DNA of 64,000 nt from Verrucomicrobiota bacterium (GCA_038214755.1 JBBQRQ010000013.1:9155-73154), one strand, 5' to 3'. Counted from the stretch's first letter, positions 23,609 to 62,587 are shown. Notes: generated by a model from the letters alone, not told the origin. Translations and numbers: made by a program.

Positions 23609-26206
23609 ATGACCGAACCCGCCATCACTCTAGACTTGGTTGCCAAACACAACCTCACGCCCGACGAATATGCCCGCGCCAAGGAAATTCTGGGGCGCGA
23701 CCCGAATTACACGGAACTGGGAATTTTTTCGGTGATGTGGAGCGAGCATTGTTCTTACAAAAATACGAAGCCGCTGCTGAAAACATTTCCGACCAAGTCT
23801 GCAAAAATTCTTGTCGGCGCGGGCGAAGAAAACGCCGGCATCATCGACATCGGCGACGGACTGGCCATCGCCTTTAAAATTGAATCCCATAATCATCCGA
23901 GCGCGGTCGAGCCGTTTCAAGGCGCAGCCACAGGGGTGGGCGGAATCATTCGTGATATTTTTACGATGGGCGCGCGTCCGGTTTGCGCGCTGAATTCTTT
24001 GCGCTTCGGGCCGATTGCGGGAAATGGAGAAGTGGGTGGGAAAGTGGGAAAGTGGGAAAGTGGGGCAGAGGCGACAAATTCTGAAGCCTCACTTTCTCAC
24101 TTTCCCACTTTCCCACTCGCCCCAGTCTCCAACGAAATTCTTAACAACCGCCGCCTCTTCGCCAGCGTCGTCAGCGGCATTGCGCATTACGGAAATTGTT
24201 TCGGCATTCCAACCGTGGGCGGCGAAATTTATTTCGACGAATCCTACGAGGGCAATCCACTCGTCAATGTGTTTTGTCTCGGCGTTTTGCGGCACGAACA
24301 AATTGCCCGCGGCGCGGCGAAAGGAATTGGCAATCCAGTTTTCTATGTTGGCCCGGCCACAGGTCGCGATGGGCTCGCGGGCGCGGCCTTTGCCTCCCAG
24401 GATTTAACGGACGAATCAGCCCAAGGACAACGCGGCGCTGTGCAAGTCGGAGATCCGTTCATGGAAAAATTGGTCTGCGAAGCGTGCCTGGAACTTCTGG
24501 CGACCGATTGCGTCGCGGGAATTCAAGACATGGGCGCGGCTGGTTTGACTTGTTCGACGTGCGAAACCGCCGCGCGCGCGGGAACCGGAATTGAGATCGA
24601 GTTGAGCAAAGTTCCGCAACGCGCCCCGCACATGACGCCTTACGAAATTATGTTGAGCGAATCGCAGGAACGGATGCTCATCATCGTCAAACGCGGTCGC
24701 GAAGCGGAAGTGCAACGCATCTTCGACAAATGGGATTTGCCGTGGGCGGAAATTGGTTTCGTGACCGACACCGGAAAAATGGTCGTCAAAAATCGCGGCG
24801 AAATTGTTGTCGATATTCCAGCGAAAAAATTGGCCGATGAAGCGCCGGTTTATTTTCGCGACGCAAAAGAGCCGGAATATTTGAAAGCCGTTCGTGAATT
24901 TACTTTGGCTCAAATTGCCGATTGCCAATCGCCGATCGCCGATTTGAAAACTCTGCTGGCGTCGGCGAACATTGCTTCCAAGAATTGGGTCTATCGCCAA
25001 TACGATCACATGGTGCGCGATGGCTCGGTGGTTTGTCCCGGCTCGGATGCGGCGGTCATTCGCATCAAGGAAGATTCGCTGCCGATGAGTTCTTTGCAGT
25101 GCGGTAACTTGTCACCGCTTTCTTCCGCGGGCGACTTGTCGCCCGCGACTGCGCGAGAACTCGCGCAGTCAAAAAGCGGCGAGAACTCGCCGCACTCCAC
25201 GTTTCCGGAGAAGTACGTGGCGATGACCGTTGATTGCAACGCCGCTTACGTTTATCTCGATCCGTACGAAGGCGCAAAAACTGTCGTGGCGGAAGCCGCC
25301 CGAAATCTCGCTTGTTCTGGCGCGACTCCACTTGGTTCAACCGACAACCTAAATTTTGGAAATCCGCACAACCCGGAAATTTTCTGGCAACTTAAAGAAT
25401 CCGTTCGCGGCCTGGCCGAAGCCTGCCGCGCATTCAACGCGCCCGTCACTGGCGGCAACGTCAGTCTCTACAATCAAAATCCGAGCGGACCGATTGACCC
25501 GACGCCGACCGTCGCGATGGTCGGCTCGATCGAAAAACCGGAACACATCACGACCCAGTGGTTCAAGGCGGAAGGTGACGTAATTATTTTGCTCGGAGAA
25601 ATCGTGGATCAACAAGATCCGTTGCTCGGCTTGGGCGGCTCGGCGTATTTGCAAAAAATTCTCGGCCTGAAAACTGGCACTCCGCCGCGTTGCGATTTGG
25701 AAATGGAGAAAATTCTCCACACGACGCTGCTCGGTTTTATTTTTTCCGGCATTGTTAAAAGCGCGCATGATTGCAGCGAAGGCGGTCTGGCCGTCGCCTT
25801 GGCGGAAAGTTGCATCTCACAACAAATCGCGCGCCATACGCCGCGCCTCATCGGTGCGCAAATTGATTTGAGCGCGGTTGTTCCACCAAGCGCTGCCGAA
25901 CTCTCGGCAGATGCTTCTTCCGCGAAAGATATTGGCGACCAGAATTACCGACAGAATGTCGGCGGCCCTTTGCGCCTCGACGCTCTGCTCTTTGGTGAAA
26001 CGCAGAGTCGCGTCGTTGTATCTGTCGCGCCGCTGGATGCGGTCAAAGTTTTAGAGCGGGCAAAAATTTTGGGAGTTTCGGCCACCAGAATTGGAATCGT
26101 TGGCGGAGTTGATTTGAAAATTAAAACTTCTGACAAAGAATTTTCGTGGCCGATCGCTGAACTCCATGACCTTTGGTGGAACTCCATCGCGCGTGCCATG
26201 GCCTGA
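23609..26206 (+). CDS. purL: FGAM synthase subunit PurL carrying in-frame repeat insertions
   Basis: [14 protein letters not shown]-like, [66 protein letters not shown]. Confidence 0.97.
24036..24116. repeat. In-frame octamer inverted repeat in purL
   Basis: (GTGGGAAA)x3 ... (CACTTTCY)x3; encodes [17 protein letters not shown]. Confidence 0.85.
24914..24941 (+). repeat. Heptamer tract in purL
   Basis: ATTGCCG ATTGCCA ATCGCCG ATCGCCG; encodes [10 protein letters not shown]. Confidence 0.75.
25095..25199. mobile_element. REP doublet (TGGAGTGCG...CGCACTCCA family) in frame in purL
   Basis: TGCAGTGCGGTAACTTGTCACCGCTTT ... AAAGCGGCGAGAACTCGCCGCACTCCA; related intergenic copies at 32144, 42019 and 51977. 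Confidence 0.85.
25889..25969. repeat. Degenerate REP-like doublet in frame in purL
   Basis: Hairpins CTGCCGAACTCTCGGCAG and CCGACAGAATGTCGG inside an apparent peptide insertion. Confidence 0.6.
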
Positions 26207-26322
26207 AAAAACATCGTCCCAATTTAAACTTTTCCAGACGAGGGAGCTTGAACTCCAAATTTTCACGAGCCGTTTATCGCAAATCCAGGCGGCAGTGGTT
26301 ATTCCCAAGAATTTCTTTGACG

Positions 26323-26370
26323 CCCCAATATTTAGTATGCTACCTACCGTCGCGACACCTTTAGCAGTAT
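26323..26370 (+). promoter_or_regulatory. NrdR-box-like site(s) upstream of nrdR
   Basis: CCCCAATATTTAGTAT matches the acaCwAtATaTwGtgt consensus; weaker ACACCTTTAGCAGTAT 32 bp downstream; TTGACG immediately upstream. Confidence 0.5.
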
Positions 26371-26382
26371 GCGGCGAAATTT

Positions 26383-26838
26383 ATGCGCTGTCCGAAATGC
26401 GGAAATCAGGATGACAAAGTCATCGATTCTCGAACCTCCAAAAAAGGCTCGACGATTCGTCGGCGGCGCGAGTGTTTAAAATGCGAACATCGTTTCACAA
26501 CTTACGAAGAAATTGAGCATGAAGGTTTGGTCGTCGTCAAACGCGATGGACGGCGCGAACAATTTTCCAAAGAAAAACTTTTATCCGGCATCCGCAAAGC
26601 ATGTCAAAAGCGCCCCATCAGTCCGAAAGCCATTGAGGACCTCGTCGAGAAAATCGTCGATGAAATAACGGATAAGTTCGACAGCGAAGTTCCGGGCAAG
26701 GCGATTGGCGAGCGCGTCATGGAAGGGTTGCGGGAGCTGGATGAAGTGGCCTATGTGCGTTTCGCCAGCGTTTATCGCCGCTTCCAGGAAGCGACCGAAT
26801 TCGTGCAAGCCGTAAAAAATTTAGAGGAAGAAACATGA
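26383..26838 (+). CDS. nrdR: Transcriptional repressor NrdR
   Basis: MRCPKC, VIDSR, IRRRRECLKC..RFTTYE, ATP-cone VVKRDG, VAYVRFASVY. Confidence 0.97.
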   Translation: MRCPKCGNQDDKVIDSRTSKKGSTIRRRRECLKCEHRFTTYEEIEHEGLVVVKRDGRREQFSKEKLLSGIRKACQKRPISPKAIEDLVEKIVDEITDKFDSEVPGKAIGERVMEGLRELDEVAYVRFASVYRRFQEATEFVQAVKNLEEET

Positions 26839-27407
26839 TTCAACTCAATCCCGATTACCTTATTTTCAAAACCGCGGCAGGGGAAAATATCCCTTGCGCG
26901 GTGGAACTGGTTGCCATCGAACTGATGGGGGACGCCATTTCGCTGGTCGATCCAGATTTGATTCGCAACGCTTCCGCCGCCATCCTCCACTATTTTAAAA
27001 TTGAACTGGGATGCCACTCCGTTTCCGTGGGAGAATTTTCTCTGGCGCTCGAACGGGTGCTGCGCGGCTTTGGCCTCAACATCCAAACCGATGGCGACAC
27101 GGAGGAATTTCACATCGTGGAATCCGATTTGCGCGAAGTGGCGTCCTCGGCTGGCAAAGGTTTTGAATTATTTTTCTTTCCAAATCTTCGCGACGAGATG
27201 CGCCGCAACATCAACGAAAAGCCGCAGGTCGTCCGATTCAAAGGGTTGCGCGGCTGCGTCAAGCAAATCATCGGCGCGCAACGTTGGAGCGGACGCTGCC
27301 AAATACTCAGCGATCAAATTGTGGAATATCTTCGCACTTGTTTGAGCGCGGAATTTCTACCATCGCACCACTCCAAAAGAGAAACCTGTGCGCTCGTGGT
27401 GTTGTGA
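26835..27407 (+). CDS. Hypothetical protein translationally coupled to nrdR
   Basis: 190-aa ORF with ATGA overlap with the nrdR stop; host-like codon usage. Confidence 0.75.
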   Translation: MIQLNPDYLIFKTAAGENIPCAVELVAIELMGDAISLVDPDLIRNASAAILHYFKIELGCHSVSVGEFSLALERVLRGFGLNIQTDGDTEEFHIVESDLREVASSAGKGFELFFFPNLRDEMRRNINEKPQVVRFKGLRGCVKQIIGAQRWSGRCQILSDQIVEYLRTCLSAEFLPSHHSKRETCALVVL

Positions 27408-27423
27408 AGCGGAAATTCCGTAA

Positions 27424-27455
27424 CCGTTGAATCGTGAATCGTTGAATCGTGAATC
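27424..27455 (+). repeat. Short tandem repeat (CGT[T]GAAT)x4
   Basis: CCGTTGAATCGTGAATCGTTGAATCGTGAATC. Confidence 0.7.
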
Positions 27456-27464
27456 AAGCGGCCC

Positions 27465-27803: not shown

Positions 27804-27912
27804 AAGTTCTATCGCTCGTTCTGTCGATATTCCTTAGAGCGTGCGACGACCGCCGGCGAAATTCTGTCCGCCCACTCCGAACTCCGAAAACAACTTTGCT
27901 CCACCTACACCA

Positions 27913-28968: not shown

Positions 28969-28981
28969 GAGATCAAAAGTT

Positions 28982-30790: not shown

Positions 30791-30864
30791 TCGTAGCCGC
30801 CGACGTGAGGAGACGGATTTCGGCTGATAGTCTCAAATCCGCCTCCTCACGTCGGCGGCTACGA
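30791..30864. mobile_element. REP doublet (GTAGCCGCCGACGTGAGGAGGCGG family)
   Basis: TCGTAGCCGCCGACGTGAGGAGACGGATTT ... AAATCCGCCTCCTCACGTCGGCGGCTACGA; related copies at 39127 and 47664. Confidence 0.88.
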
Positions 30865-30938: not shown

Positions 30939-32114
30939 GTGATCTACGACGCATCACTCGACGAGTTGCTCCAAAAAGTTTGGGATGGAAACCGGATTGA
31001 TTCCACCGAAGCGTTGCGTCTTTACCATTTGCCGTTGGAAGAACTCGGAGCGCTGGCGGACCAGCGCCGCCGGATCGCAAAAAAAACCGCTTACGAAAAT
31101 CGCGGCAACGAAATCGTCACTTATATCGTTGACCGGAACATCAATTACACGAACGTTTGCAACGTCTATTGCAAATTCTGCGCGTTCTATCGCACGGAAA
31201 AAGACGACGACGCTTACGTCATCACCCACGACGAAATCGATAAAAAAATCGAGGAAACCATCGCGCTCGGCGGCACGCAGATTTTGATGCAAGGCGGGCA
31301 TCATCCAAAACTTTCGCTGCAGTGGTATGTCGATTTGCTGTCGCACATCAAAACGAAATTTCCGCAAATCAATATTCACGGATTCAGCCCAAGTGAGTTC
31401 GTGCATTTTCAGGAGGTGTTTCAGAAACCGGTTGAAGAAATTATTCGTGAGTTTATGAAAGCCGGGCTTGGCTCCATTCCCGGCGGTGGCGGGGAAATTC
31501 TGGTGGATCGCGTGCGCAAAAAAATTTCGCCCTTGAAAGCGATGAGTGACGAATGGTTGAACGTGATGGATGTCGCGCACCGCCTCGGTTTGGCTTCAAC
31601 GGCGACGATGATGTTTGGCCACGTCGAGAGCATCGAAGATCGCATCGAACATCTGGAGCGAGTGCGCGCGCAGCAGGACAAAAGTAGGGCAGGCGTCTCG
31701 CCTGCCCATCCGGTCGCGCGAGCGACGTCAGTCGAGACGACCGTGCGGGCAGGCGAGACGCCCGCCCTACCTTGTTTCACCGCCTTCATCGCATGGACAT
31801 TTCAATCGGAGAATACAAAGTTGAAAGCGCCCACGGTTGGCGCGCACGAATATTTGCGAATGCAGGCGCTCTCGCGAATTTACCTCGACAACATTTCCAA
31901 CATTCAAAGCTCGTGGGTGACGCAAGGCCAGGAGATCGGCCAGGTTGCATTGAAATTCGGCGCGAATGATTTGGGCAGCATCATGATTGAAGAGAATGTG
32001 GTCTCGCAGGCCGGAACGACTTTCCGCATGGGCGTGGCCGACATGCAACGGCTCATTTCAGAACTCGGCTACGAACCGCGCCAACGGGACAACTGGTATC
32101 GGCTGGTAAACTAA
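30939..32114 (+). CDS. mqnC: Cyclic dehypoxanthinyl futalosine synthase (radical SAM) with in-frame REP insertion
   Basis: VTYIVDRNINYTNVCNVYCKFCAF, QILMQGGHHP, IPGGGGEIL, TATMMFGH, QSSWVTQG, GANDLGSIMIEENVV. Confidence 0.93.
   Translation: MIYDASLDELLQKVWDGNRIDSTEALRLYHLPLEELGALADQRRRIAKKTAYENRGNEIVTYIVDRNINYTNVCNVYCKFCAFYRTEKDDDAYVITHDEIDKKIEETIALGGTQILMQGGHHPKLSLQWYVDLLSHIKTKFPQINIHGFSPSEFVHFQEVFQKPVEEIIREFMKAGLGSIPGGGGEILVDRVRKKISPLKAMSDEWLNVMDVAHRLGLASTATMMFGHVESIEDRIEHLERVRAQQDKSRAGVSPAHPVARATSVETTVRAGETPALPCFTAFIAWTFQSENTKLKAPTVGAHEYLRMQALSRIYLDNISNIQSSWVTQGQEIGQVALKFGANDLGSIMIEENVVSQAGTTFRMGVADMQRLISELGYEPRQRDNWYRLVN
31684..31770. mobile_element. GTAG-type REP doublet in frame in mqnC
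   Basis: GTAGGGCAGGCGTCTCGCCTGCCC ... GGGCAGGCGAGACGCCCGCCCTAC; 87 bp = 29 codons. Confidence 0.9.
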
Positions 32115-32143
32115 AAGGTGTGATTCAAACTGGCGGTCGGAAC

Positions 32144-32245
32144 AAGAGCGCCAGAGGACTGGCGCAGTCCAAGACGCTGCGCGCCATTCATGCGCCCTCG
32201 AAATTCGCGCGAGCGTCTTGGAGTGCGGCGGCCCTCCGCCGCTTT
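32144..32245. mobile_element. REP doublet (GGAGTGCG family, head-to-head)
   Basis: AGAGCGCCAGAGGACTGGCGCAGTCCAAGACGCT ... AGCGTCTTGGAGTGCGGCGGCCCTCCGCCGCTTT. Confidence 0.8.
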
Positions 32246-35130: not shown

Positions 35131-35298
35131 GGGCCGCATCTCAGAGGCGTGGTGACCAAATGGAAAGGAGCGCGGACGTTCTTCGTCCGCGTGTTTCCAA
35201 AACGGACAAAACCACCGGGCTCTCGTCCCTCACGATTCACGCGGACGAGAACGTCCGCGCTCCTACTGGTTTGGGCAACACGCCCGTGAGATGCGCCC
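35131..35298. mobile_element. Nested MITE-like element containing a RAYT-cognate REP doublet
   Basis: Outer IR GGGCCGCATCTCA/TGAGATGCGCCC; middle IR GGCGTGGTGACCAAA/TTTGGGCAACACGCC; inner REPs AGGAGCGCGGACGTTCTTCGTCCGC/GCGGACGAGAACGTCCGCGCTCCT. Confidence 0.85.
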
Positions 35299-38362: not shown

Positions 38363-39124
38363 ATGGCAAAAACTTCTCTGACCTCCATCGTTGGTTATTG
38401 CGATAAAATTTTGCACACGGAAAAATTCACCGATTGGGACGGCGCGGCCAACGGACTTCAAGTGGAGAACCGCGGTCACGTCACCAAGATTGCGGCGACG
38501 GTGGATGCGAGTCTGGCGACGATCAAATTGGCGACAGAAGCGAAAGCGGATTTGCTTATTGTGCATCACGGGCTTTTTTGGAGCGCGACGCACCCGTGGA
38601 CAGGCCAGCGGCGAGAGATGTTGCGCCTGCTGGTGGAAAAGAATTTGGCCGTTTACAGTTCGCATCTGCCGCTGGATGCGCATCCGAGACTGGGCAACAA
38701 CGCGCAACTTTGTGCTGCGCTCGGTTTCAAAAATCTGAAGCCATTTTTCGAGAGCAAAGGACAGTTCATCGGCTGGCAAACCAAAACGAAAATTGCGCGG
38801 GGCGAATTGTCGCGGCGTCTTGGAAAAATTCTCGGCAAAACGCCGACACTCTTGCCGGGCGGTTCGGAAATTTGTGGGCGAATCGGAATCGTCACGGGCG
38901 GCGCGGGAGCGGATTTAAAAAAAGCGGCAAACGGAGACGTGGACACGTTCGTCACCGGCGAAGGTCCGCATTGGACTTATGCGCTGGCGGAAGAATTGAA
39001 TCTCAACGTTTTTTACGGCGGCCATTACGCGACTGAAGTTTTCGGCGTTAAGGCGTTGGCCGCGCATCTCTCGAAAAAATTTAAACTGCCTTGGACGTTT
39101 CTCGATCACCCGACTGGATTATAG
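38363..39124 (+). CDS. Nif3-like dinuclear metal centre protein (YbgI/DUF34)
   Basis: NGLQVE, VDAS, LLIVHHGLFW, HLPLDAHP.LGNN, FVTGE, GGHYATE.FGVKAL. Confidence 0.93.
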   Translation: MAKTSLTSIVGYCDKILHTEKFTDWDGAANGLQVENRGHVTKIAATVDASLATIKLATEAKADLLIVHHGLFWSATHPWTGQRREMLRLLVEKNLAVYSSHLPLDAHPRLGNNAQLCAALGFKNLKPFFESKGQFIGWQTKTKIARGELSRRLGKILGKTPTLLPGGSEICGRIGIVTGGAGADLKKAANGDVDTFVTGEGPHWTYALAEELNLNVFYGGHYATEVFGVKALAAHLSKKFKLPWTFLDHPTGL

Positions 39125-39126
39125 AT

Positions 39127-39272
39127 CGTAACCGACGCCGTGAGGAGGCGGACTCCGGCCAACGGAACGCCGATCTCCAGATCGGCTCGCGCACAGTCGA
39201 GCATCTGCGGCCGATCGGGAGATCGGCGTTCCTGGCGCGAGCGAAATCCGCCTCCTCACGTCGGCGGTTACG
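39127..39272. mobile_element. REP doublet nested inside a REP doublet of another family
   Basis: Outer CGTAACCGACGCCGTGAGGAGGCGGA/TCCGCCTCCTCACGTCGGCGGTTACG; inner (39164-39232) GGAACGCCGATCTCCAGATCGGC/GCCGATCGGGAGATCGGCGTTCC. Confidence 0.88.
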
Positions 39273-41994: not shown

Positions 41995-42164
41995 GGGTGA
42001 GGCGGGATTTGGTTTCCGTGGACTGCGGCGGCATGGCGCCGCTTTTCCTGCACGTTACGCGATGGAGAAAGTGCTCAATAGGGACCTTCCCCGCTCTTCC
42101 ACCGTGCAGCCAAAGCGGGGACTTGTCCCCGCAGTCCGAAATAAGATCGGTTCCCGCCTCACCC
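41995..42164. mobile_element. GGA(C/G)TGCG-family element (42019-42137) inside a 13-bp perfect inverted repeat
   Basis: GGGTGAGGCGGGA ... TCCCGCCTCACCC flanking TGGACTGCGGCGGCATGGCGCCGCTTT ... AAAGCGGGGACTTGTCCCCGCAGTCC. Confidence 0.8.
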
Positions 42165-47905: not shown

Positions 47906-49021
47906 TTAACGCGACTGGACCAGGACACGAAAGGGGCGGCCGAGATGTTCGGGATGGGTCAACGTTTGAAATTGTTTTCGGCGGGCGGAATTCCATTCCT
48001 CAAAAAGTTGAGGCATCGCCCAGGTTTTTTCCGCGATGGTTGTCAAAAACTTCGTTTGAGAAATCAGCGCATCGGTTTTTAACCCGGCGGACTCTCCCGC
48101 ATTTTTCAACGCGCTGAAATTAACATGAGCCGTTAAATCTTGTTCGCCTGGCCTCGCCAGCAAATCATTATTTCCATGATGACGCGAGAACGCCCGCAAA
48201 GTTCCAGCGCTTCTTTCCGGCACAAAAAATTCTTCGGCGAGCAATCCATAATCAATCGCGACCAGCTTGCCTTCCTGCAAAAAGTTCGCAGCCTCCGTCC
48301 ACCATCCAGTCGCAGCGGGACAAACTTCGGTGGTGAATTGGTCGGGCAAAACTTCTATTAGCTCGGGTGGAAGTGCGGGAGCCAAAATCGCCGGGCGTGA
48401 TTTTTCGGGAAGGCGTTTCCAATAAAAATTTGTGCCATCGAATCCGACGCCCCATTCGAACCAGGATTTGCTGTTGGCCTCCCATCCGAAACGGTGCGCC
48501 GGCAGCGCGTCGAGAAGTTCGTTGCAAAAAACGATTGTGAAACGCGGAACGCGGAATGCGGAACGCGGAAAATCGGACCAGTCGGCACGCCATGAAATAT
48601 TGTCTGCAAATTCAGCGAGAGTTTTGCTCTGCCAATTTTTGCGGCGCAGGGAAGGTTCGAGGATGCAGTAATCGAGGTGTTCGAAAATTTCCGGCCTGAA
48701 TTTTTTCAGCCAACTCAAGATGTCCGAGGCAAGTTGTCCATCGTGCGCGCCCGCTTCCAGAATTTGCAAATTCACTTTTCCGCGTTCCGCGTTCTGCGTT
48801 CCGCGTTCCTCCAGCCATTCCGCGAATTGAAAGGCGAGCAATTCGCCGAACAAAGTTCCCACGCTGACGCTGGTGAAAAAATCCCCGCGCCGGCCTATTT
48901 CCAGCTCGCGTTCGTAATAGCCTTCGCCGGGAGAATAGAGCGCGACTTCCATGAATCTGGCGAAGGAAATAGCTCCGGCATTTTCAAGCTCCGTTCGCAA
49001 TTTTGAAATGATTCCCGTCAT
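47906..49021 (-). CDS. SAM-dependent methyltransferase, MidA/NDUFAF7 family, with two heptamer-tract insertions
   Basis: ISFARFMEVALY.P..GYY, GDFFTS, ILEAGAHDG.LA.D, NELLDALP, IDYG, PGEQDLTAHVNF, LG..FRVLVQ. Confidence 0.92.
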   Translation of the reverse strand: MTGIISKLRTELENAGAISFARFMEVALYSPGEGYYERELEIGRRGDFFTSVSVGTLFGELLAFQFAEWLEERGTQNAERGKVNLQILEAGAHDGQLASDILSWLKKFRPEIFEHLDYCILEPSLRRKNWQSKTLAEFADNISWRADWSDFPRSAFRVPRFTIVFCNELLDALPAHRFGWEANSKSWFEWGVGFDGTNFYWKRLPEKSRPAILAPALPPELIEVLPDQFTTEVCPAATGWWTEAANFLQEGKLVAIDYGLLAEEFFVPERSAGTLRAFSRHHGNNDLLARPGEQDLTAHVNFSALKNAGESAGLKTDALISQTKFLTTIAEKTWAMPQLFEEWNSARRKQFQTLTHPEHLGRPFRVLVQSR

Positions 49022-51446: not shown

Positions 51447-51914
51447 ATGGCCGACCGATTTGATTTCGTCAGCACCTCCGACAAGCCGGCCTTGCTCGCC
51501 ATCACCACGCCAGAGTGGTTCACGGCCGCGCAGGACGCTCTGGTGGAACTCGGTTACAAAGTGCAAAAGATCTCCGATCCCTTGGAACTAGCCGGACGTT
51601 TCAGCCAGGTGCAATATCACGTCGTTATCATCGAAGAACAATTTGGCGCGACGAGCGGCGCGGAGAATTTGGCTTTGCAGGAATTGCAACGGATGCCGAT
51701 GAACCAGCGGCGTCATGCGACCATCATTTTGCTCGGCCACTCCTACGAAACTTTGAACGCGCTCCAGGCGTTCCAACAAAGCGTTCATGCGGTGATCAAT
51801 TTTTCCGAAATGCCATTGCTCGCTCAACTCATCAAAAAAATCGTGACGGACAACGAATTATTTTTGAGAAACTTCCGCGAAATCCAACTCCGCGTCGCCC
51901 ACGCCAAGGATTAG
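51447..51914 (+). CDS. Hypothetical receiver-like protein in the pilT/pilU operon
   Basis: 3 bp after the pilU stop; alpha/beta pattern; MPMNQRRH..IILLG...TLN..QAF..SV. Confidence 0.7.
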   Translation: MADRFDFVSTSDKPALLAITTPEWFTAAQDALVELGYKVQKISDPLELAGRFSQVQYHVVIIEEQFGATSGAENLALQELQRMPMNQRRHATIILLGHSYETLNALQAFQQSVHAVINFSEMPLLAQLIKKIVTDNELFLRNFREIQLRVAHAKD

Positions 51915-51919
51915 GGTAA

Positions 51920-52144
51920 AAACCGAAACCCGAAATCCGCAGGCCGAAAGAAATCCGAAGCCCGAAATTTTCACTTGGGACTGCGGGGGCATGTTTCCGC
52001 TTTGACTGCACGGTGGGAAAGAGCAGGCGTTAATCCAGAGTTTGTTACCTCAGAGAGGCGCGCAGGAAAAGCGGCGTCATGCCGCCGCACTCCAAAAAAG
52101 TATCGCCATTCGGATTTCGGACTTCTGGATTAATATTCGGTTTC
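51920..52144. mobile_element. GGAGTGCG-family element (51977-52094) inside inverted CCGAAAT/ATTTCGG heptamer tracts
   Basis: Reverse complement of the inner part closely resembles 42019-42137; flanks resemble 53787-53947. Confidence 0.8.
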
Positions 52145-52914: not shown

Positions 52915-53782
52915 AAAAATCGACCGCGTCGGTTTGATCGCTAATTCCGAAAAACCCGCCAGCCGAAGTCTTACGCAAAAGGCATCAGAGTGGGTGGCAC
53001 GAACGGGCCGCACGGTTTGCTGCGATATTCTCACCGAACAGATGGCGAATTTAAAAATCGATGGCTATCCCGATGCGGCGAGTCTCGCTCGCGAAGTTGA
53101 TTTGCTTCTCGTGTTTGGTGGAGACGGTTCGATGCTGCGAGTGGTGCGCGAAATCGACGGAGCACTCACGCCCATCCTCGGCATCAACGTGGGTCGGCTT
53201 GGTTTTTTGACCGCTGTTTCCTCGAACGATTTGCCGGCCGCGCTGGAAAAAGTGTGGCGGAATGATTTCAAAATCGAATCACGTCCTTTGCTCGAAGCGC
53301 GCGGAGAGAGCAGTGGGGAAAAAATTCATTTGCGCGCGTTGAATGACATCGTCATCAGTCGCGGCGCTGCTCCGCGCATGATCGAGTTGGAAGTCAGCGT
53401 CAACGGCGAGGTGCTGACCTGTTATCGCTGCGATGGATTGATCATCAGTTCGCCCACCGGCTCGACCGCGTATTCGCTTTCGGCGGGCGGGGCCATCGTC
53501 AGCCCGGAGGCGCAAGTTTTCGCCATCACACCCATTTGTCCTCACACGCTGTCCAACCGTTCGGTCATTGTGGGATCGAATTCCACCGTGCAGGTCAAAG
53601 TGATCAGCGAAAAAGTTGAAACGACCGCCACGGCGGATGGCCAGACGCAAGTGGATTTGCTGGCCGGCGACAGGATCACGATTCGTCGCAGCCGTCGCGC
53701 GGCGCAATTGCTGCATCCGGGCGGGAGTTCATTCTTTGACACGCTGCGCCGGAAATTGCACTGGAGCGGTTCGAACGTTTAG
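52898..53782 (+). CDS. nadK: NAD kinase
   Basis: GGDGSML, GINVGRLGFL, ALNDIV, DGLIISSPTGSTAYSLSAGG, PICPHTL, ADGQ. Confidence 0.95.
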   Translation: MKKPFKKIDRVGLIANSEKPASRSLTQKASEWVARTGRTVCCDILTEQMANLKIDGYPDAASLAREVDLLLVFGGDGSMLRVVREIDGALTPILGINVGRLGFLTAVSSNDLPAALEKVWRNDFKIESRPLLEARGESSGEKIHLRALNDIVISRGAAPRMIELEVSVNGEVLTCYRCDGLIISSPTGSTAYSLSAGGAIVSPEAQVFAITPICPHTLSNRSVIVGSNSTVQVKVISEKVETTATADGQTQVDLLAGDRITIRRSRRAAQLLHPGGSSFFDTLRRKLHWSGSNV

Positions 53783-53786
53783 GCGG

Positions 53787-53947
53787 AGATCCGAATTCCG
53801 AAATCCGAGAGCCGAAAGAAATCCGAAGTCCGAAGGCGCGGCGGAACTGTGCGCATCGCAAAGTACTTTTCCAGGTGCTGGCGGCAAGTCGTTTTCGGTA
53901 TTCGGATTTCGGACTTCTTTCGGATTTCGAGGATCGGATTTCGGATT
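53787..53947. repeat. Inverted heptamer-tract element (CCGAAAT/ATTTCGG)
   Basis: ATCCGAATTCCGAAATCCGAGAGCCGAAAGAAATCCGAAGTCCGAA ... TTCGGATTTCGGACTTCTTTCGGATTTCGAGGATCGGATTTCGGAT. Confidence 0.85.
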
Positions 53948-55049: not shown

Positions 55050-55456
55050 ACAAAATTATCTTATCTATTGTCGGTGTGGTGGTGTTGGTGGTCGTCGGAT
55101 GGCTTGCTCTGCCTTATTTGACTCAGCGGACGGATCCAAAAGTTGGCAAATTTAACGAAAATGCGGAGAGTCTCGTCATCGGCCTGCAACAATATAAAGA
55201 ATTCGTGGGCAGTTATCCTTCCGGGAGCCTGGTGGATATTTCGAGAGCGTTGACCGGGCAGACGGACAAAAAAGTCCTGATTTTAGTCACGCGCAAAAGT
55301 GAATTGAACACGAAAGGCGAAATCGTTGATCCGTGGGGCACGCCGATTAAAATTTATTTCAATCAGGACACGATTCTAATTCGCTCCGCCGGAGCCAACC
55401 GCGTTTTCGAAGACAGCAAGAATGCGCGGACGGATGATCTTTATCGGTCGAGCTAA
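55046..55456 (+). CDS. Membrane-anchored GspG/pseudopilin-like protein
   Basis: N-terminal TM helix; L.QY....G.YP, DPWGTP, IRSAG.N..F....DD. Confidence 0.6.
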   Translation: MNKIILSIVGVVVLVVVGWLALPYLTQRTDPKVGKFNENAESLVIGLQQYKEFVGSYPSGSLVDISRALTGQTDKKVLILVTRKSELNTKGEIVDPWGTPIKIYFNQDTILIRSAGANRVFEDSKNARTDDLYRSS

Positions 55457-56640
55457 ATGCGTTTCCAGGCAGCGACAAACATTCCGTTTCCGGCATAGTC
55501 TTGCGGCCAAAACCAAAGTGAATTCGCAAACTCGCCGGGCTTAAAGGGATTTTTCATTTCCAATTTCTCAAAATCCTTGCGCTCGTTCTGAAAAAATTCC
55601 GCGACACCGATTGTTTCGTCGCGCGACAAAGTGCAAACAGAATAAATCAATTTTCCGCCAAGCTTCACTGCCTCGGCCACGTGCAGCAAAAGTTTTCGCT
55701 GGATGCCGCTCAACTCGCGCACGTCGTTGGCTGAAGTCGTCCAACGCGCTTGTGGATTACGATGCCATGTTCCAATTCCGCTGCACGGCGCGTCAACCAG
55801 GACTCCGTCAAATTTTGTTTTCGTCGGCAGTTTTTTCCCGCCGTCCCAAAGCGACGCTCGATAATTAAAAACTTTTGCGCGCGCCGTTCGTTGTTTCAAT
55901 TTTTTCAAACGCCACTCCGCGCGGTCGCTCGCCCAGATCAGACCTTTGTTCTCCATCAACTCCGAGAGATGAAGCAGCTTGCCGCCTTCCCCGGCACACG
56001 CGTCCCACCAAATTTCGCCAGGCTGGGGCGCGCAGATGACACCGACCGCCTGCGAACTGAGGTCCTGTAATTCGAAATCGCCATTTTGAAATTCCGGCGA
56101 GCGAAATAAATCTTCTGAGCCGCGATATTCGATGGCGTCGGTCAGCGAAGTCTTTTGTTCCAGCAAACAAAAACCGAGCGCTTCGGCAATTCGGCTGGCC
56201 TGATTTCGTTTGGTGCGCAACCAAAGTTTCGGTTCGCATTGCAAAGCGCGCAGCCACTCCGGCGAGACCGTCACAAAATCTTTTACCCAGGCGGGAATGG
56301 CTCTGGCCGACAATTCTTCTTCAGAAAATTTCTGCGGCTCGCGCAAAAATTTCTCGGCGAGTTGTTGCGCGACGAAAATATTTCCGGCCAGCGGCTTTTG
56401 CGGATCGAGCCAACCGAGCCATCGGAAATAAGTAAAAACCGCGCGACTGATTTCGCGGCTGTCCCTTCGAGACAAACTCGTTTGCCGCTTAAGTTCGGTG
56501 CGAAGAACCGAATCGGCCGGATGTTCATCGTCAGACTTGGCAATAATTTCAGCCGCGATTTTTACGAGAGGTTGAGGAGCGCGGACGTTCTCGTCCGCGA
56601 GGCATCGTTTCGAGTTAGCGTTGCGAGAAAATTTTCTCAC
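55453..56640 (-). CDS. RsmB/NOP-family RNA m5C methyltransferase
   Basis: ELQDLSSQ, WDACAGEGGK, VLVDAPCSGIGTW.RNP, GGKLIYSVCT; GTG start overlaps the RAYT stop. Confidence 0.9.
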   Translation of the reverse strand: MRKFSRNANSKRCLADENVRAPQPLVKIAAEIIAKSDDEHPADSVLRTELKRQTSLSRRDSREISRAVFTYFRWLGWLDPQKPLAGNIFVAQQLAEKFLREPQKFSEEELSARAIPAWVKDFVTVSPEWLRALQCEPKLWLRTKRNQASRIAEALGFCLLEQKTSLTDAIEYRGSEDLFRSPEFQNGDFELQDLSSQAVGVICAPQPGEIWWDACAGEGGKLLHLSELMENKGLIWASDRAEWRLKKLKQRTARAKVFNYRASLWDGGKKLPTKTKFDGVLVDAPCSGIGTWHRNPQARWTTSANDVRELSGIQRKLLLHVAEAVKLGGKLIYSVCTLSRDETIGVAEFFQNERKDFEKLEMKNPFKPGEFANSLWFWPQDYAGNGMFVAAWKRI

Positions 56641-56677
56641 GTTGATGGCGACTCGCGGACGAGAACGTCCACGCTCC
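56575..56677. repeat. REP doublet downstream of RAYT
   Basis: AGGAGCGCGGACGTTCTCGTCCGCGA ... TCGCGGACGAGAACGTCCACGCTCC. Confidence 0.92.
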
Positions 56678-57302
56678 GGCGAGCGCTGCTAAACGCCCAT
56701 TCTTCGGCACATTGCGCCAAACCCGCTTTCACCGGATTATTTTCGATGTAACGGATCGCCCGTTGAAGATGCTTTTCATCCCGAATAAACCTGTCCCAAT
56801 AATCCGGCTGCCAAAAACTTCCGGTGCGATTCAATAGTTCATTTGCGTTTCGGGCGGAGAATGCTTTCCAACTTTTTATCAGTTTAGCCAACGGAATTTC
56901 CCAAACTTCAACAAGTGCGTGAACGTGATTGGGCATGATCGCCCATGCCAGCAAGCGGCAACGTTCGCCGTCGAAATGCAGCAATGTCTCCTCCACCAGC
57001 CGGGCGATTTGCGGTTGCCGCAAATAACACGATCCGTAACCACGATCCAAATAGCTTTCGATTTGAATTCGTTTTTCGCGCTCATCTTCAATCGCCAATA
57101 ATGCTTCCCACTCGTGGCGGCGGCTCGCGGGCATGGAATCGTGCAAACGATAAGTCACCATTTGGATGACGCCCGGTTTGTCGAAATGCGGCAGGTATCC
57201 GCGTGAATGCCAACCCAGAAAACCCTTGGCTTTTTCTTCAGTTTCTAAAGGGGAATGCCACGATTGTTTATCGAGAATGATTTGTCGGACATGCGCGTTC
57301 AT
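56637..57302 (-). mobile_element. rayt: REP-associated tyrosine transposase (RAYT/TnpA-REP, HUH Y1 family)
   Basis: GWHSRGYLPH, VTYRL..S, AWAIMPNHVH (HUH), SWK.FSA, FWQ..YWDRFIRD, YIENNPVKAGL (catalytic Tyr), W.FSS; REP doublets on both sides. Confidence 0.95.
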
Positions 57303-57312
57303 GGGAGATCAT

Positions 57313-57433
57313 AGGAGCGCGGACGTTCTCGTCCGCGAGTTTTTAATTTGTGGGGAAGGTTTGGAATAAAGTTTCATCGAAAACATGTTTGTTCCAAAAA
57401 AACAAACTCGCGGACGAGAACGTCCGCGCTCCT
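57313..57433. repeat. REP doublet upstream of RAYT
   Basis: AGGAGCGCGGACGTTCTCGTCCGCGAGT ... ACTCGCGGACGAGAACGTCCGCGCTCCT (28-bp perfect IR). Confidence 0.93.
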
Positions 57434-57437
57434 TTCT

Positions 57438-60380
57438 TTAGGCGCCCGCAACCAATTGCCGCAACACGAATGGTAAAATTCCGCCGTGCTGATAATAATC
57501 TATTTCAATTGGCGTATCGATTCGGCAGGTCACGGGAACTTCTTCGGATTTTCCTTCGACACGTGTGATGCGCAGGACCAAATCTTGTTGCGGTTTGATT
57601 TGCGCATTCAACCCGACCACATCGAAAGTTTCCGTCCCATTTAATTGCAGCGAGTGCGCGGAAACCTCTCCGTGAAATTGCAACGGCAACACGCCCATGC
57701 CCACGAGATTGGACCGATGAATTCGCTCGAAACTTTGCGCAACCACGACGCGCACGCCGAGAAGTTTTGTTCCCTTGGCCGCCCAATCTCGCGAACTGCC
57801 CGTGCCATATTCATGTCCGGCCAGAACAATCAGCGGCGTTTTCCCTTCCGCATATTTCATCGCCGCGTCGAAGATGCTCATCTGCTCTCCCGTGGGTTGA
57901 AAGATCGTCACGCCGCCTTCCACTCCGGGCACCATTAAATTTTTTATTCGCACATTGGCGAACGTGCCGCGCGTCATCACCCGATCATTCCCGCGACGCG
58001 ATCCGTAACTGTTGAAATCAATAAAATTGACTCCTTCGTCGATCAAATATTTTCCAGCCGGAGAATTTTTCCGGATGCTGCCCGCGGGCGAAATGTGGTC
58101 GGTCGTCACGCTGTCGCCAAAAATTCCCAGCGGACGCGCGCCGCAAATTTCAGTAATCTCAGTGGGCCGTAAACTAAAGTGGGTGAAGAACGGCGGCTCC
58201 TGAATGTAAGTGCTCTTGCCATCCCATTCATAAACCTCCCCAATGCTGGACGGAATCTCGTTCCATTTTGGATTTTGTTCAGTGAAGTCCGCGTAAAGTT
58301 TTCGAAAAATCTCCGGCTGCAACACCGTTTCCATTTGTTCGCGCACCTCGCGCGCCGTCGGCCAAATGTCTTTGAGAAAAACATTCTGGCCATCTGTCCC
58401 TTGTCCGATCGGCTCCTCCGCCAAATTAATATCGATTCGCCCGGCGAGCGCGAACGCGACGACCAACGGCGGCGACATCAGAAAATTGGCTTTGATGCTT
58501 TGATGCACGCGCGCTTCAAAATTGCGATTGCCGGAAAGCACCGATGCTGCGACCAAGTCATTTTCCGTGACGGTATTTTCAATTTGCGGCGAGAGCGGGC
58601 CGGAATTTCCGATGCAGGTCGTGCAGCCATAACCGACCAGGTTGAAACCGAGTTCATCCAAAAATTTTTGCAAACCGGCTCTCTCCAAATAATCACTGAC
58701 GACGCGCGAGCCAGGCGCGAGCGAAGCCTTCACGAAGGAATTTGGCTTCAATCCTTTTTCGACAGCTTTCTTCGCCAGCAAACCCGCGGCGAGCATCACG
58801 CTGGGATTACTGGTGTTAGTGCAACTGGTGATCGCCGCGATGAGCACGCTGCCGTGATGGATTTCGCCTTCGCAAATCATTTGCGGCGCGGGCACCGGAT
58901 CAGCCGTCGGACGGTTGTTGGCCATTTCCAACTCCGTGGTCGGATTGGTATTTCGCTCGGCAGATTGCCGGAGCGAAACCGGCTCCTGACTCCCGCCGCC
59001 GCTCGGAGCGACAACGCGATGACATTCAATTGGAAAAGTTTTCGCCAAATCTTCTGCCGGTTTGTTGAATCCATTTTCGGAAACCGGTTTGGAAAACGCT
59101 TTGACGAATTCCTCTTTTAACTTTGGTAATTCGATTCTGTCTTGCGGCCGTTTCGGTCCGGCAACGCTCGGAACAATCGTCCCCAAATCCAGTTCGAGGC
59201 TGACGGAGTATTCGATGTCGCCTTTGTCCGGCATGCCGAAAAGTTTTTGGGCGCGATAATAATTTTCGTAGAGATGGCAGTGCTTTTCGCTCCGGCCAGT
59301 GGCGCGCAAATAATTTACCGTCTCAGAATCAATTGGAAAAAATCCCATCGTCGCGCCGTATTCGGGAGCCATGTTGGCAATCGTCGCGCGATCCACCACG
59401 CCCAGGGCCGCCGCGCCCGGGCCAAAAAATTCCACAAACTTTCCGACAACTTTTGCTTTGCGCAACACTTGCGTGATCGTCAGCGCGAGATCGGTCGCGG
59501 TCACGCCATCGTTCAACGCGCCCGTGAGATGCACACCGACCACATCCGGCATGAGAAAATAAACGGGTTGGCCGAGCATTCCGGCTTCAGCTTCGATTCC
59601 GCCGACGCCCCAACCGACAATGCCGAGGCCGTTGATCATCGTGGTGTGGGAATCGGTGCCGACGAGCGTGTCGGGATAATAAACCGGAGCGCCGATCTCC
59701 TGATCGGCTCGGGTCGAGTCGTCGTGGTCCAGCCGATCAGGAGATCGGCGTTCCGAGTTGTTCCCTTCGTGCCGATCAGGAGATCGGCGTTCCGATAGAA
59801 CGCCTTTCGCCAGATATTCCAAATTGACCTGGTGCACGATGCCGATGCCGGGCGGAACAACTTTGAAAGTTTCAAATGCCTGCATGCCCCATTTTAAAAG
59901 TTGGTAGCGTTCGCGGTTGCGATGAAATTCCACTTCAAGATTTTTCTCCATCGCGTCCGCTGTCCCGGAAAAATCCACTTGCACGGAATGGTCCACCACC
60001 AAATCCACCGGCACGAGGGGCTCGATCATTTTGGGATTTTTTTTCATGAGCGCGACGGCGGAACGCATGGCGGCCAAATCCACCAGCAGCGGAACTCCGG
60101 TGAAATCCTGCAAAACAATTCGCGCCACGACGAAAGGGATTTCCTCGGTGCGCCGGCCCATCGCACTCCAATTGGCCAGCGCCTTGACATTTTCTTCGGT
60201 GACTTTTTTTCCGTCGCAATTGCGCAAAACGGATTCAAGCACCAAGCGAATGGAAACGGGTAATTTTGAAATCGGGCCGACACCGGCGGCCTCCAGCGCG
60301 GGCAGAGAATAGAACGAACCTTGCTGACCGTTTCCGAGATCAAACTTTTGCAGTGAGTTAAAGAGATTGTGCATGTTCAT
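57438..60380 (-). CDS. acnA: Aconitate hydratase A with in-frame REP triplet
   Basis: [91 protein letters not shown]. Confidence 0.98.
59686..59793. mobile_element. Three REP copies (GGARCGCCGATCTCCTGATCGGC family) in frame in acnA
   Basis: GGAGCGCCGATCTCCTGATCGGC, then GCCGATCAGGAGATCGGCGTTCC x2; 108 bp; same family as 39164-39232. Confidence 0.92.
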
Positions 60381-60504
60381 AAAATATCTTCGGCGCGACT
60401 GAGAATTCCAATGGAGAAATGAAAATGAAGTTGGCGCGCAAGCGTGTCAAGCGAGCGAGAAACTGCGCAGTGTCGTGGGGCGCGTCTTGAGCCGGAACTA
60501 TTCA

Positions 60505-60656
60505 GTGAAGAGAAACGCTCGACCTCACCCCGGCCCTCTCCTCCGAGGAGAGGGAGAATATTATTCAGCGTTGGAAAATATTCACCGTTGAATGCCTGAT
60601 TGCGGACCCTGCTGGCAGGTTCCCTCTCCGCGGGGGAGAGGGTTAGGGTGAGGGCG
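60505..60656. mobile_element. CCCTCACCC..CCCTCTCC-family doublet
   Basis: CCTCACCCCGGCCCTCTCCTCCGAGGAGAGGG ... CCCTCTCCGCGGGGGAGAGGGTTAGGGTGAGGG. Confidence 0.85.
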
Positions 60657-60689
60657 AACAATCTGTCCAACTGGATCGTTCCGGTTGAG

Positions 60690-60827
60690 GGCGGGTTGCC
60701 CAAACCAGTTGGAGCGCGGACGTTCTCGTCCGCGTGAATCGTGAAGGACGAAAGGACAGAGGTTTTGTCCGTTTTGAAACACGCGGACGAAGAACGTCCG
60801 CGCTCCTTTTCATTTGGGCAACACGCG
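60690..60827 (-). mobile_element. Second copy of the MITE-like element with a RAYT-cognate REP doublet
   Basis: Reverse complement aligns along its length, spacer included, with 35146-35284; ends GTTGCCCAAA/TTTGGGCAAC. Confidence 0.88.
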
Positions 60828-60942
60828 CTACGAAATCGAGTGGCCACGGGTCTATTTAAACTGCTCCTGCCCACCGAATGAATGAGAAAACTTCTTCATC
60901 GTCTGATCTTTCAGCGGTCAAAAACAAGCCGCGCTTAAAAAT

Positions 60943-61296
60943 ATGAAAAAAATTATTCTATCCGCACTGCTCCTGGTGGGTGTTGGTGTGACAACATCGC
61001 AAGCCCAAGTTTCGTTCGGGTTTTCATTTGGCGACAGCCATCATCACAACCGGGGTCATGGTGGATTCAGCGTCGTCCTTCCCCCGCCGCCCTTTTTTCC
61101 GCCGCCTCGAATTTACGTTCAACCTGCGCCCGTCTATGGGGGTGACAGCTACGGCTCGGGTCACGGTGGTGGTTACCGCAGTGAGTATAATGCGTTTCAT
61201 CGGCACGAGGCGCTGCACCACGAAATGGAACACGAACACCAGGCGTATCATCACGATGCCGAGCATCGCCACGAAGCATACCATTCTGGTTGGTAA
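60943..61296 (+). CDS. Small secreted His/Gly/Pro-rich protein
   Basis: Signal peptide ..SQA-QV, poly-Pro stretch, C-terminal HEALHHEMEHEHQAYHHDAEHRHEAYH repeats. Confidence 0.8.
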   Translation: MKKIILSALLLVGVGVTTSQAQVSFGFSFGDSHHHNRGHGGFSVVLPPPPFFPPPRIYVQPAPVYGGDSYGSGHGGGYRSEYNAFHRHEALHHEMEHEHQAYHHDAEHRHEAYHSGW

Positions 61297-61304
61297 GAAC
61301 AGAG

Positions 61305-61340
61305 GATCTTTCCTGCGCCCACGGGGCGCGCAGGAAGATC
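61305..61340. terminator. GC-rich hairpin between convergent genes
   Basis: GATCTTTCCTGCGC ... GCGCAGGAAGATC; no strong U-tract. Confidence 0.45.
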
Positions 61341-61417
61341 TCAGATCCCCGCGAAAAATTTCTTTCACGGGAAGGGGACAACTTCAACTTTTGTCATCAG
61401 TTTCTGTAGCCGATTGA

Positions 61418-62587
61418 TCACGCCTTCTTCAATTCGATCCAAAACCTGGTGCCTTTTCCCGGCTCGGATTCCAAGCCGACGCTGCCATCCATGCGTTCCA
61501 CACCTTTGCGCACGATGGAAAGGCCAATGCCCGTACCGGGAAAACGCGAGCCGTGCAAGCGCTCGAAGACGCGGAAGATGCGCTCGTGCTGATCGGGCGG
61601 AATTCCTTCGCCGTTGTCCTGCATCCAGAGCCGCACGAAGCCGGGAGGGGGACGGGATGAAGGGATGGCTGGATGAGGGGATTGTTGGATTGGTGGATTG
61701 TTGGATGGATGGATTGGTGGATTTGATTTCCCACCATCCATCCACTCATCCAACAATCCACCAATCCCTTTTTTTTCCATCCCTCCTTCTTCCCACTCCT
61801 CCGCCCAGAAACGGATCTTCGGCTGGACGCCATCCGGCACGAATTTTATCGCGTTGCCCAACAAGTTCGCCAGGACTTGCGCGAGCGTCGCTTCGTTTGC
61901 GCGCACCGATGGCAGCGGCGAGACCGTTTGGATTTGAGTTTTGGTTTGCTCGATTTGCGTGGCGTGTTGGTAGATGGCGGTTTCCCACGCCGCCTGGACT
62001 TTCACTGACTCCAGTTTGGTGTCGGTGCGCCCGACGTGCCCAAAGGCCAGCAAGTCGATGATCATTTTATCCATGAACTCGGATGAAGCATTGATGCGGT
62101 TGAGAAAATTGCGCGCCGTTTCGTCGAGAGAAGGCGCATAGTCATCCATCAATACCTGGGAGAAACCTTGCATCGAGCGCAGCGGGGCGCGCAGATCGTG
62201 CGCGATGGAATAAACGAACGCCGCGAGTTGCTCGTTGGTTTCTTTCAAGTCGGCGGTGCGTTCCCGGACGGTCCGTTCTAAAGTCGCCGCGTGTTCTTTC
62301 AATTGTTTCTGCGCTTGCCGCAAGGATTCTTCCGCTTGTTTGCGCTCGGTAATTTCCGCTTGCAGTTGCGAGTTCAACTTCTCCGCTGCTTCCGTGAGTT
62401 CGTGCTGGTGCAACCCGGCGATCAGCAAGGCCTCGTTGATCGCGGTCGTTTGCTCCTTGCTTTCGCGCAAGGCTTCCTGCGTCTGGAGGAGTTCCCGCTC
62501 CGCGCGGTCGCGGGCGAGCTGAATGCTCCTCGCGTTCTGGAGCGCGACCGAGCGCAGCAACTTCTCTTCGTCTTGTTCTTGTTCCAT
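61418..62587 (-). CDS. Cytoplasmic histidine kinase (coiled coil-HisKA-HATPase) with in-frame repeat insertion
   Basis: H-box FVYSIAHDLRAPLR, N-box NLLGNAIKF, G1 QDNGEGI, F-box IFRVFERL, G2 GTGIGL; no TM or PAS domain visible. Confidence 0.92.
   Translation of the reverse strand: MEQEQDEEKLLRSVALQNARSIQLARDRAERELLQTQEALRESKEQTTAINEALLIAGLHQHELTEAAEKLNSQLQAEITERKQAEESLRQAQKQLKEHAATLERTVRERTADLKETNEQLAAFVYSIAHDLRAPLRSMQGFSQVLMDDYAPSLDETARNFLNRINASSEFMDKMIIDLLAFGHVGRTDTKLESVKVQAAWETAIYQHATQIEQTKTQIQTVSPLPSVRANEATLAQVLANLLGNAIKFVPDGVQPKIRFWAEEWEEGGMEKKGIGGLLDEWMDGGKSNPPIHPSNNPPIQQSPHPAIPSSRPPPGFVRLWMQDNGEGIPPDQHERIFRVFERLHGSRFPGTGIGLSIVRKGVERMDGSVGLESEPGKGTRFWIELKKA
61654..61790. repeat. In-frame octamer (GGATTGTT/GGATGGAT) inverted-repeat insertion in the kinase
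   Basis: GGATTGTTGGATTGGTGGATTGTTGGATGGATGGATTGGTGGAT ... CCATCCATCCACTCATCCAACAATCCACCAATCC. Confidence 0.85.

Follow-up and report, generated by a model that had tools for sequence, protein, structure and literature searches.

What are the palindromic DNA elements that lie in frame within core enzymes of a Verrucomicrobiota bacterium, and how are they maintained there? The question is raised by a stretch of 64,000 nucleotides (nt) from one strand (GCA_038214755.1, JBBQRQ010000013.1:9155-73154), referred to here as the window, which is C13:9155-73154 of a 5.1 Mb assembly in 175 contigs (G000). An earlier note on the window listed nine sites, in purL, mqnC, a MidA-like methyltransferase gene, acnA and a histidine kinase gene, at which palindromic DNA appeared to be inserted without disrupting the reading frame. 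Six of these (purL 24036, 25095 and 25889, mqnC, acnA and the kinase) are true multi-copy inserts; purL 24914 and the two tracts in the MidA-like gene are not. From sequence comparison, the reading that we favour with moderate confidence is that gene-less hairpin cassettes of many families sit in frame in a few tolerant loops, are probably translated, and turn over by landing inside older cassettes and by recombinational exchange between lineages.

The named PurL records closest to that of the window come from Verrucomicrobia, Limisphaerales among them, and G000 presumably belongs to that lineage. Each host protein was aligned to relatives (G009 was left out of all alignments), with 79 PurL sequences from many phyla used for the wide comparison and three paralogues within G000 for the kinase. 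The stability of each insert hairpin was expressed as a z score against shuffled sequence. In PurL, the loops at sites 1 (24036) and 3 (25095) span 45 and 50 amino acids (aa), compared with 6 aa in 57 of the 79 sequences; the site 1 loop is also short in 7 of 28 relatives from the same order. Site 4 (25889) is a true insert in a degenerate state. The loop in MqnC measures 32 aa versus 4 aa in 7 of 23 relatives, that in AcnA 39 aa versus 6-7 aa in 13 of 22 aligned relatives, and that in the kinase 78 aa versus 27-29 aa in its paralogues. Five of the six inserts fold far better than shuffled sequence (z -10.7 and -7.0 at purL sites 1 and 3, -9.6 in mqnC, -9.5 in acnA and -7.2 in the kinase), purL site 4 being the exception (z -1.6). 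Their families recur at 17 loci in G000 for purL site 1, 15 for site 4, 51 for mqnC, 99 for acnA and 24 for the kinase, and the site 3 pattern has 168 matches in G000 versus 1 in shuffled DNA. The statement in the earlier note that the site 3 and acnA families also have intergenic copies in the window holds, with a single such copy, at 39163, for acnA. Distant taxa lack the six segments, and purL, acnA, mqnC and midA are under purifying selection, with ratios of nonsynonymous to synonymous substitution (dN/dS) of 0.07-0.15; the inserts are thus neither ancient conserved loops nor, in these genes, parts of pseudogenes.

Structural comparisons bear on the position of the purL inserts. The match of the PDB entry 3viu to PurL is interrupted exactly at sites 1 and 3. 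In an AlphaFold model built from 29 sequences (predicted local distance difference test score, pLDDT, of 59), sites 3 and 4 appear as low-confidence segments amid a confident core, site 2 (24914) appears ordered, and site 1 falls in a poorly modelled half that is uninformative; a model from a single PurL sequence (pLDDT 34) was not used. Most of the long inserts in the 79 PurL sequences coincide with these sites and come mainly from Verrucomicrobia and certain Acidobacteria; four Acidobacteria also have an enlarged loop elsewhere, near residue 670. At purL site 2, repeat DNA has merely overwritten the loop, which has the median length of its orthologues (20 aa in each case) and a z score of only -2.2; two genus mates carry 7 extra residues there, made up of three heptamers. 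Another verrucomicrobium (L265) has about 100 aa inserted in frame at site 2, which we take to resemble an S1 RNA-binding domain. The two sites in the MidA-like gene (48541 and 48778) are small, separate half-tracts, 203 nt apart with conserved coding sequence between them, in loops of 42 and 19 aa that fall within the 36-49 and 11-36 aa of relatives.

Genome-wide, the repeats fall into two classes. The first comprises doublets of repetitive extragenic palindromes (REPs), with 19 motifs and 2072 matches, of which 1753 are intergenic, 232 lie within genes and 87 at gene ends; density within genes is 0.05 of the intergenic density, and 669 doublets were counted in total. The mqnC, acnA and purL site 3 units are palindromes of 20-40 bp. 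A 5′ GTAG foot is present in mqnC (at 31684), and GGAA, GGAG or GCAG takes its place in acnA and at purL site 3. Two families are found largely in coding sequence: 21 of 43 matches of the site 4 family are internal to genes, as are 26 of 31 for the mqnC family, as if an old family persisted mainly in coding loops. The second class consists of inverted arrays of 7- or 8-base units, with 554 tracts in 13 families, compared with 3 tracts in shuffled DNA; where such tracts are paired 60-150 nt apart, one polarity occurs 25 times and the opposite once. The tracts at purL 24036 and 24914, in the MidA-like gene and in the kinase belong here, and since their units are non-palindromic they are not REPs.

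The suggestion that REP-associated tyrosine transposases (RAYTs) drive the process is plausible for the first class. G000 has 17 matches to Y1/RAYT proteins, many of them flanked by these REP families, including the one in the window; the site 4 family adjoins a RAYT at C33, and other families in the genome also adjoin RAYTs. The tandem tracts match instead the arms of a different kind of element. G000 has 11 matches to four-helix-bundle proteins (PF05635) and 3 to GxxExxY proteins (PF13366), and inverted arrays flank most of those with visible flanks; the kinase insert family forms the arms of a four-helix-bundle gene at C49 and the purL 24914 word family those of a gene at C20. No gene-carrying copy of the purL 24036 or MidA families was seen in G000. 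We dismissed the notion that native genes are routinely enclosed by pairs of inverted tracts, as the MidA-like gene might be, since such pairs are few.

Collectively, 169 of 2989 genes of at least 450 nt (about 6%) carry repeat-derived peptide loops, at 231 sites, which supports the proposal of a multi-family process that repeatedly adds loops to proteins. The sites are clustered: 42 genes have at least two (12.9 expected) and 13 have at least three (0.9 expected), the latter including mfd, three uvrA-like genes, priA and purL. Here and below, the names DinG, UbiD, MiaB, UvrC, Mfd, UvrA and kinase/uridylyltransferase fusion are those we presume from recognition of the sequences. In metagenome contigs, the GTGGGAAA doublet lies in frame in MiaB-like (L381), UvrC-like (L393) and membrane-protein (L408) genes.

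The inserts are likely translated and not excised, because frame breaks are rare (1 versus about 52 in-frame inserts), the hydrophilic orientation is favoured, and host genes evolve with a dN/dS near 0.1. Frame keeping was gauged by counting frame breaks in place of a test for lengths in multiples of three: intact open reading frames (ORFs) cannot reveal a length bias, and the spans of doublets modulo 3 are flat in genes (20/25/23) and outside them because doublet boundaries are ragged. Among 437 orthologue pairs between G000 and G059 (1.6 of 4.1 Mb; the G059 assembly is in two contigs), 1396 loops vary in length, and 54 of these contain repeat DNA of G000; two look spurious, leaving about 52 in frame. 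When 603 G059 proteins served as tblastn queries, a single repeat insert that breaks the frame came to light. The search also returned 18 matches containing stop codons, of which 16 lie before start codons (counted manually) and 2 are internal, in weak paralogue matches that could involve repeats. Among eight tandem families that are stop-free in both directions, the hydrophilic orientation is used 51:24 in genes versus 43:62 in intergenic DNA (p = 5e-4). The lone frame-breaking insert (G000:C77:693-798) is a REP arm plus a heptamer tract in a UbiD-like gene, with the tract close to where its contig stops; the frame would shift there whenever a 7-base unit was added or lost, and phase variation or an assembly slip are both possible. 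In the metagenome contig L354, the site 1 octamer occupies, in frame, the loop matching this insert.

A very improbable alternative is that the hairpins act at the RNA level, being excised like intervening sequences or tuning translation or mRNA decay, with the peptide incidental. The predicted RNA hairpins are very stable (z -7 to -11 at five sites), and the genes enclosed by tandem arms include those of PF05635, a family whose name refers to the intervening sequences of 23S rRNA. Excised inserts, however, require neither a conserved frame nor hydrophilic peptides; site 1 is absent from 7 of 28 relatives and its families are interchangeable. Self-excising inserts would be expected to have fixed junctions and no constraint on frame or peptide, whereas here junctions vary and both frame and orientation are biased.

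The occupants of a given loop differ among relatives. At purL site 1, the loops of 28 relatives are empty in 7 and otherwise hold about eight unrelated families, by manual count; at purL sites 3 and 4, mqnC and acnA, different families likewise occupy the same loop in different relatives. Across whole genomes the agreement is modest: 3 loops are filled in both G000 and G059 (0.5 expected), and 3 of 8 repeat loops of G005 are shared with G000 by threshold (0.9 expected), or 6 of 8 by manual count. It is likely that the loops act as reusable landing sites, because the same loops in relatives hold a different repeat, nothing or, in the case of PriA, a whole transposase gene.

The PriA loop, which lies outside the window, provides the most complete series. 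The empty loop measures 43-48 aa; other genomes have tandem tracts or a REP doublet there, and 6 of 28 loci contain a complete RAYT in frame, the RAYTs being of two types that are about 43% identical and associated with different REP families. The doublet in the PriA loop of G007 is an exact recombinant of sequences in G008: its left arm is that of the left doublet of G008, and its spacer and right arm are those of the right doublet. A single recombination, in whichever direction, therefore separates a cassette that carries a RAYT from a doublet that stands alone. The site 1 octamer of purL lies in frame in the same PriA loop on metagenome contig L376. In G000, complete in-frame RAYT domains with flanking REP peptides are found in PriA (C88:17590-20586), a DinG-like helicase (C64:9580-12468) and a kinase/uridylyltransferase fusion (C33:13409-17728), and all three retain the HUH and tyrosine motifs; the corresponding loop of the fusion protein is empty in G001 and G005.

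Repeats also tend to lie inside one another. Among pairs of doublets of different families in G000, 42 are nested, 17 lie side by side and none is interleaved, even though the mean space available is 64 nt within unnested spacers and 162 nt outside. After one possibly co-propagated pair and double counts are dropped, the ratio is 28:17 (p = 2e-6 against a rough null). This preference bears on a rival explanation, in which random insertion at a high rate is filtered by tolerance, a few tolerant loops being hit independently by different families with no targeting of hairpins. The 20-fold depletion of repeats in genes agrees with such a filter, as do the imprecise junctions at purL site 1 and the expansion of that site in some Acidobacteria, and neutrality of REPs in flexible loops has been proposed, in the accessible part of a study of Opitutus terrae (PMC3733652). 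Nesting is nonetheless preferred in intergenic DNA as well, where no coding filter operates; genes with multiple sites are more numerous than expected, though tolerant genes could give that too; and inserts are held in common across families together with their flanks. We regard a pure tolerance filter as unlikely on balance.

The last of these points concerns allele exchange. The purL genes of G001 (C66) and G005 (C33) are nearest to that of G011, which belongs to a different family within the order (0.91 identity), and acnA, mqnC and midA of the same two genomes are nearest to those of genus mates; purL of G001 and G005 has apparently been replaced by an allele from another family. Smaller patches are also evident. 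Around site 1, purL of G005 is 0.92-1.00 identical to that of G001, yet it carries another repeat family there; at site 2, G005 and G059, which is of another family, have in common an insert and about 27 nt of upstream flank; and G005 and G027, again of another family, have in common site 3 and a stretch of about 120 codons that are 0.95 identical. There is also a ComEC gene. Two further candidates were set aside. The strongest breakpoint, in the G005/G001/G027 triplet at aa 182, is an artefact of a truncated G027 ORF, and only the 0.95-identity block after site 3 was kept; a spacer common to G002 and G005 at purL site 1 does not prove common origin, since the element also occurs elsewhere in its entirety (83% in G005, and 88% for the G002 purL copy).

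Exchange of this kind could be driven by nucleases, with a RAYT or four-helix-bundle partner nicking loop hairpins and repair from foreign alleles leading to the spread of non-splicing, intein-like elements with co-conversion of flanks. Short shared patches centred on inserts, the replacement of purL across families and the motif-intact RAYTs inside PriA, DinG and the fusion protein are what such homing would leave; against it, acnA, mqnC and midA follow the genus despite their inserts, most triplets show no break, and the mosaicism described is that of insert-bearing genes. As an explanation in its own right, homing seems improbable. We also consider doubtful a bolder combination in which coding-loop hairpins would be self-renewing docking sites where RAYT-type nucleases, some of them translated domains of PriA, DinG and metabolic enzymes, nick, insert cassettes and trigger repair from foreign DNA. 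Intein-like homing without splicing would then swap loops and pieces of core genes between families, and a parallel four-helix-bundle system would generate the heptamer tracts.

It is scarcely credible that these patterns arise from assembly or binning. The genomes are drafts in many contigs, and a heptamer tract close to where a contig stops is the place of the one frame break, but dozens of genomes assembled independently, that of G059 in two contigs among them, have the same loops filled with frames open, and in G001 the foreign-type purL and a genus-type priA are on one contig, C66.

The mechanism that best accommodates these observations, in the favoured reading of cassettes that land in old hairpins and are exchanged between lineages, is as follows. 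The HUH nucleases of RAYTs would move REP-type doublets in trans, preferring the spacer of an existing hairpin, and selection would retain only those versions that preserve frame, lack stops and are mostly hydrophilic, in surface loops. Old arms may decay, or cassettes may collapse across direct repeats so that another family remains, and decay, collapse and homologous exchange would all change the occupant of a loop. The 7/8-mer tracts are presumably the arms found around four-helix-bundle and GxxExxY genes in their empty form, and patch conversion or slippage may spread short tracts. The insert peptides themselves would be near-neutral passengers.

Several observations weigh against this reading. 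The repeat-poor genome G001 has no repeat in any of the 27 loops examined that G000 has filled, and genome-wide co-occupancy rests on three loops in each of two comparisons, one of which used G005 contigs partly picked for repeat content. Families vary by several nt in their junctions at purL site 1, and there is therefore no exact target site. The null for nesting is a rough one, and a nested pair may propagate as a single unit. Among the flanks of Y1 genes in G000, the mqnC, acnA and purL site 3 families were not seen next to any RAYT, and the commonest words there belong to other families; of 80 metagenome matches to the site 1 octamer, 4 (two of them identical) adjoin a four-helix-bundle gene. 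Three triplets that include G000 or G007 gave no significant breakpoint. Genic and intergenic counts depend on a home-made caller, which predicted 4321 genes in G000.

Table 1. Features of the window, with positions counted from its first nucleotide
Feature	Position	Strand	Basis or remark
purL (FGAM synthase II), intact; three inserts and one overwritten loop	23609..26206	+	Pfam AIRS/AIRS_C; dN/dS 0.09-0.11
purL site 1: 8-mer GTGGGAAA in inverted arrays	24036..24116	+	loop 45 aa vs 6
purL site 2: heptamer-like word, GGCAATC family; overwrites loop, no net gain	24912..24945	+	alignments
purL site 3: GGAG-type REP doublet around two further hairpins	25096..25199	+	alignments, folding
purL site 4: degenerate REP cluster, CCGACAGAATGTCGG family	25871..25972	+	loop 34 aa vs 6
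purL site 3 family, intergenic copies	32147..32245, 42019-42137, 51975-52094	.	pattern matches at 32220, 42020, 42112, 51978, 52068
mqnC/CofH-type radical SAM gene, intact	30939..32114	+	domain match; dN/dS 0.07-0.08
mqnC insert: GTAG-tagged REP doublet (GTAG...CTAC), 87 nt, between Radical_SAM and CofH_C	31684..31770	+	
Intergenic nest: acnA-family doublet (39163-39232) within a doublet of another family	39116..39272	.	
MidA-like S-adenosylmethionine methyltransferase, PF02636	47906..49021	-	dN/dS 0.14-0.15
MidA half-tract, GGAACGC family; reads FRVPR	48541..48572	-	also present in G008
MidA half-tract, GGAACGC family; reads GTQNAER	48776..48807	-	separate loop
RAYT (Y1 HUH transposase, PF01797), NHVH motif and YIENNP tyrosine	56637..57302	-	profile match
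REP doublet upstream of RAYT	57313..57433	.	partner doublet 56575-56677
acnA aconitase, intact	57438..60380	-	domain match; dN/dS 0.08
acnA insert: GCCGATCAGGAGATCGGC REP family, three units (one single and a doublet)	59686..59793	-	loop 39 aa
Histidine kinase (HisKA and HATPase_c)	61418..62587	-	domain match
Kinase insert: GGATTGTT/GGATTGGT inverted arrays inside HATPase domain	61654..61790	-	family forms arms of four-helix-bundle gene at C49

Elsewhere in the window, the REP doublet family of the RAYT has further copies at 35147-35298 and 60688-60829, and the downstream doublet overlaps both the C-terminus of the RAYT and the 5′-end of an RsmB/NOL1-like gene (55453-56677). Intergenic heptamer and octamer tracts that belong to further families (CGAACAT, CGTTGAAT, CGAAATC) lie at 13614-14597, 27420-27460, 51906-51966 and 53774-53834. 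An ATP-binding, transcription-regulator-like gene between purQ and purL (21962-23476) differs in sequence style and is possibly imported, and an ORF of 1241 aa at 8427-12152 contains tandem repeats of about 37-39 aa that are presumably RCC1/ATS1-like. No Rfam family matched within 23000-62500.

These loops bear on two open questions: what determines where REPINs insert, and what allows RAYTs to persist. The conserved flanks of an enzyme fix the landing site, and empty, nested, loaded and collapsed states can therefore be aligned across genomes, which is rarely possible for intergenic repeats. The nesting bias predicts that RAYTs target the spacer of an existing hairpin. A practical consequence is that marker genes such as purL can be mosaic in this order. 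Intragenic REPs are not new, and the phenomenon is at base a known one; what is new is the turnover at fixed loops, the nesting, the series from loaded to empty loops and the exchange of alleles. A literature search, with subscription journals and preprint supplements left uncovered, found nothing on turnover across families at fixed coding loops, nesting bias or in-frame RAYT cassettes, and no publication linking coding tracts to four-helix-bundle/GxxExxY arms. Cassettes of the latter kind are gene-bearing with inverted arms of 7-10-mers, whereas the tracts in the window are gene-less and coding.

Among known systems, REPIN/RAYT systems and REPtrons (PMC3337134, PMC3686654, PMC6006769), as described in the portions of these papers available to us, have in common with the present elements the inverted REP doublets and the Y1 HUH genes flanked by them. 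The available text of one reports that different REP classes surround orthologous RAYTs (orthogroups, 'orthoswitch'; PMC3686654). In Pseudomonas fluorescens SBW25, co-localised REPINs are at chance level according to the part of the report that could be accessed (PMC3337134), whereas here different families nest. A survey known to us in part (PMC6006769) dropped very long TnpA-Y1 proteins as fusions or errors; the three found here are real in-frame cassettes, and long 'fusion' RAYTs once put down to annotation error thus exist. The Rickettsia palindromic elements (RPEs) are similar in that palindromic DNA lies in frame in core genes and is probably tolerated in the folded protein, judging from extracts of two reviews (PMC10969869, PMC3184786). 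RPE units in these accounts are about 105-150 bp, each with a conserved peptide, whereas the inserts described here have variable spacers, lengths and peptides, belong to many unrelated families and turn over at fixed loops. The Wolbachia WPE elements named in the earlier note found no mention in the two reviews searched.

The closest precedent is from the same phylum. Opitutus terrae has 70 intragenic GTAG REPs (GTAG-17/18/19), in genes that include those for PurL (with two dimers), UvrA and helicases (Di Nocera et al. 2013, PMC3733652). As far as the accessible sections of that study extend, its in-frame REP singles and dimers resemble those described here, and peptides such as GTGVSPV match relatives in our set. 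The sections in question deal with three families in one genome, in which the REPs of related genes are mostly at different sites. In contrast, many families and the 7/8-mer tracts recur here at the same loops, nest within one another, and alternate with whole RAYT cassettes.

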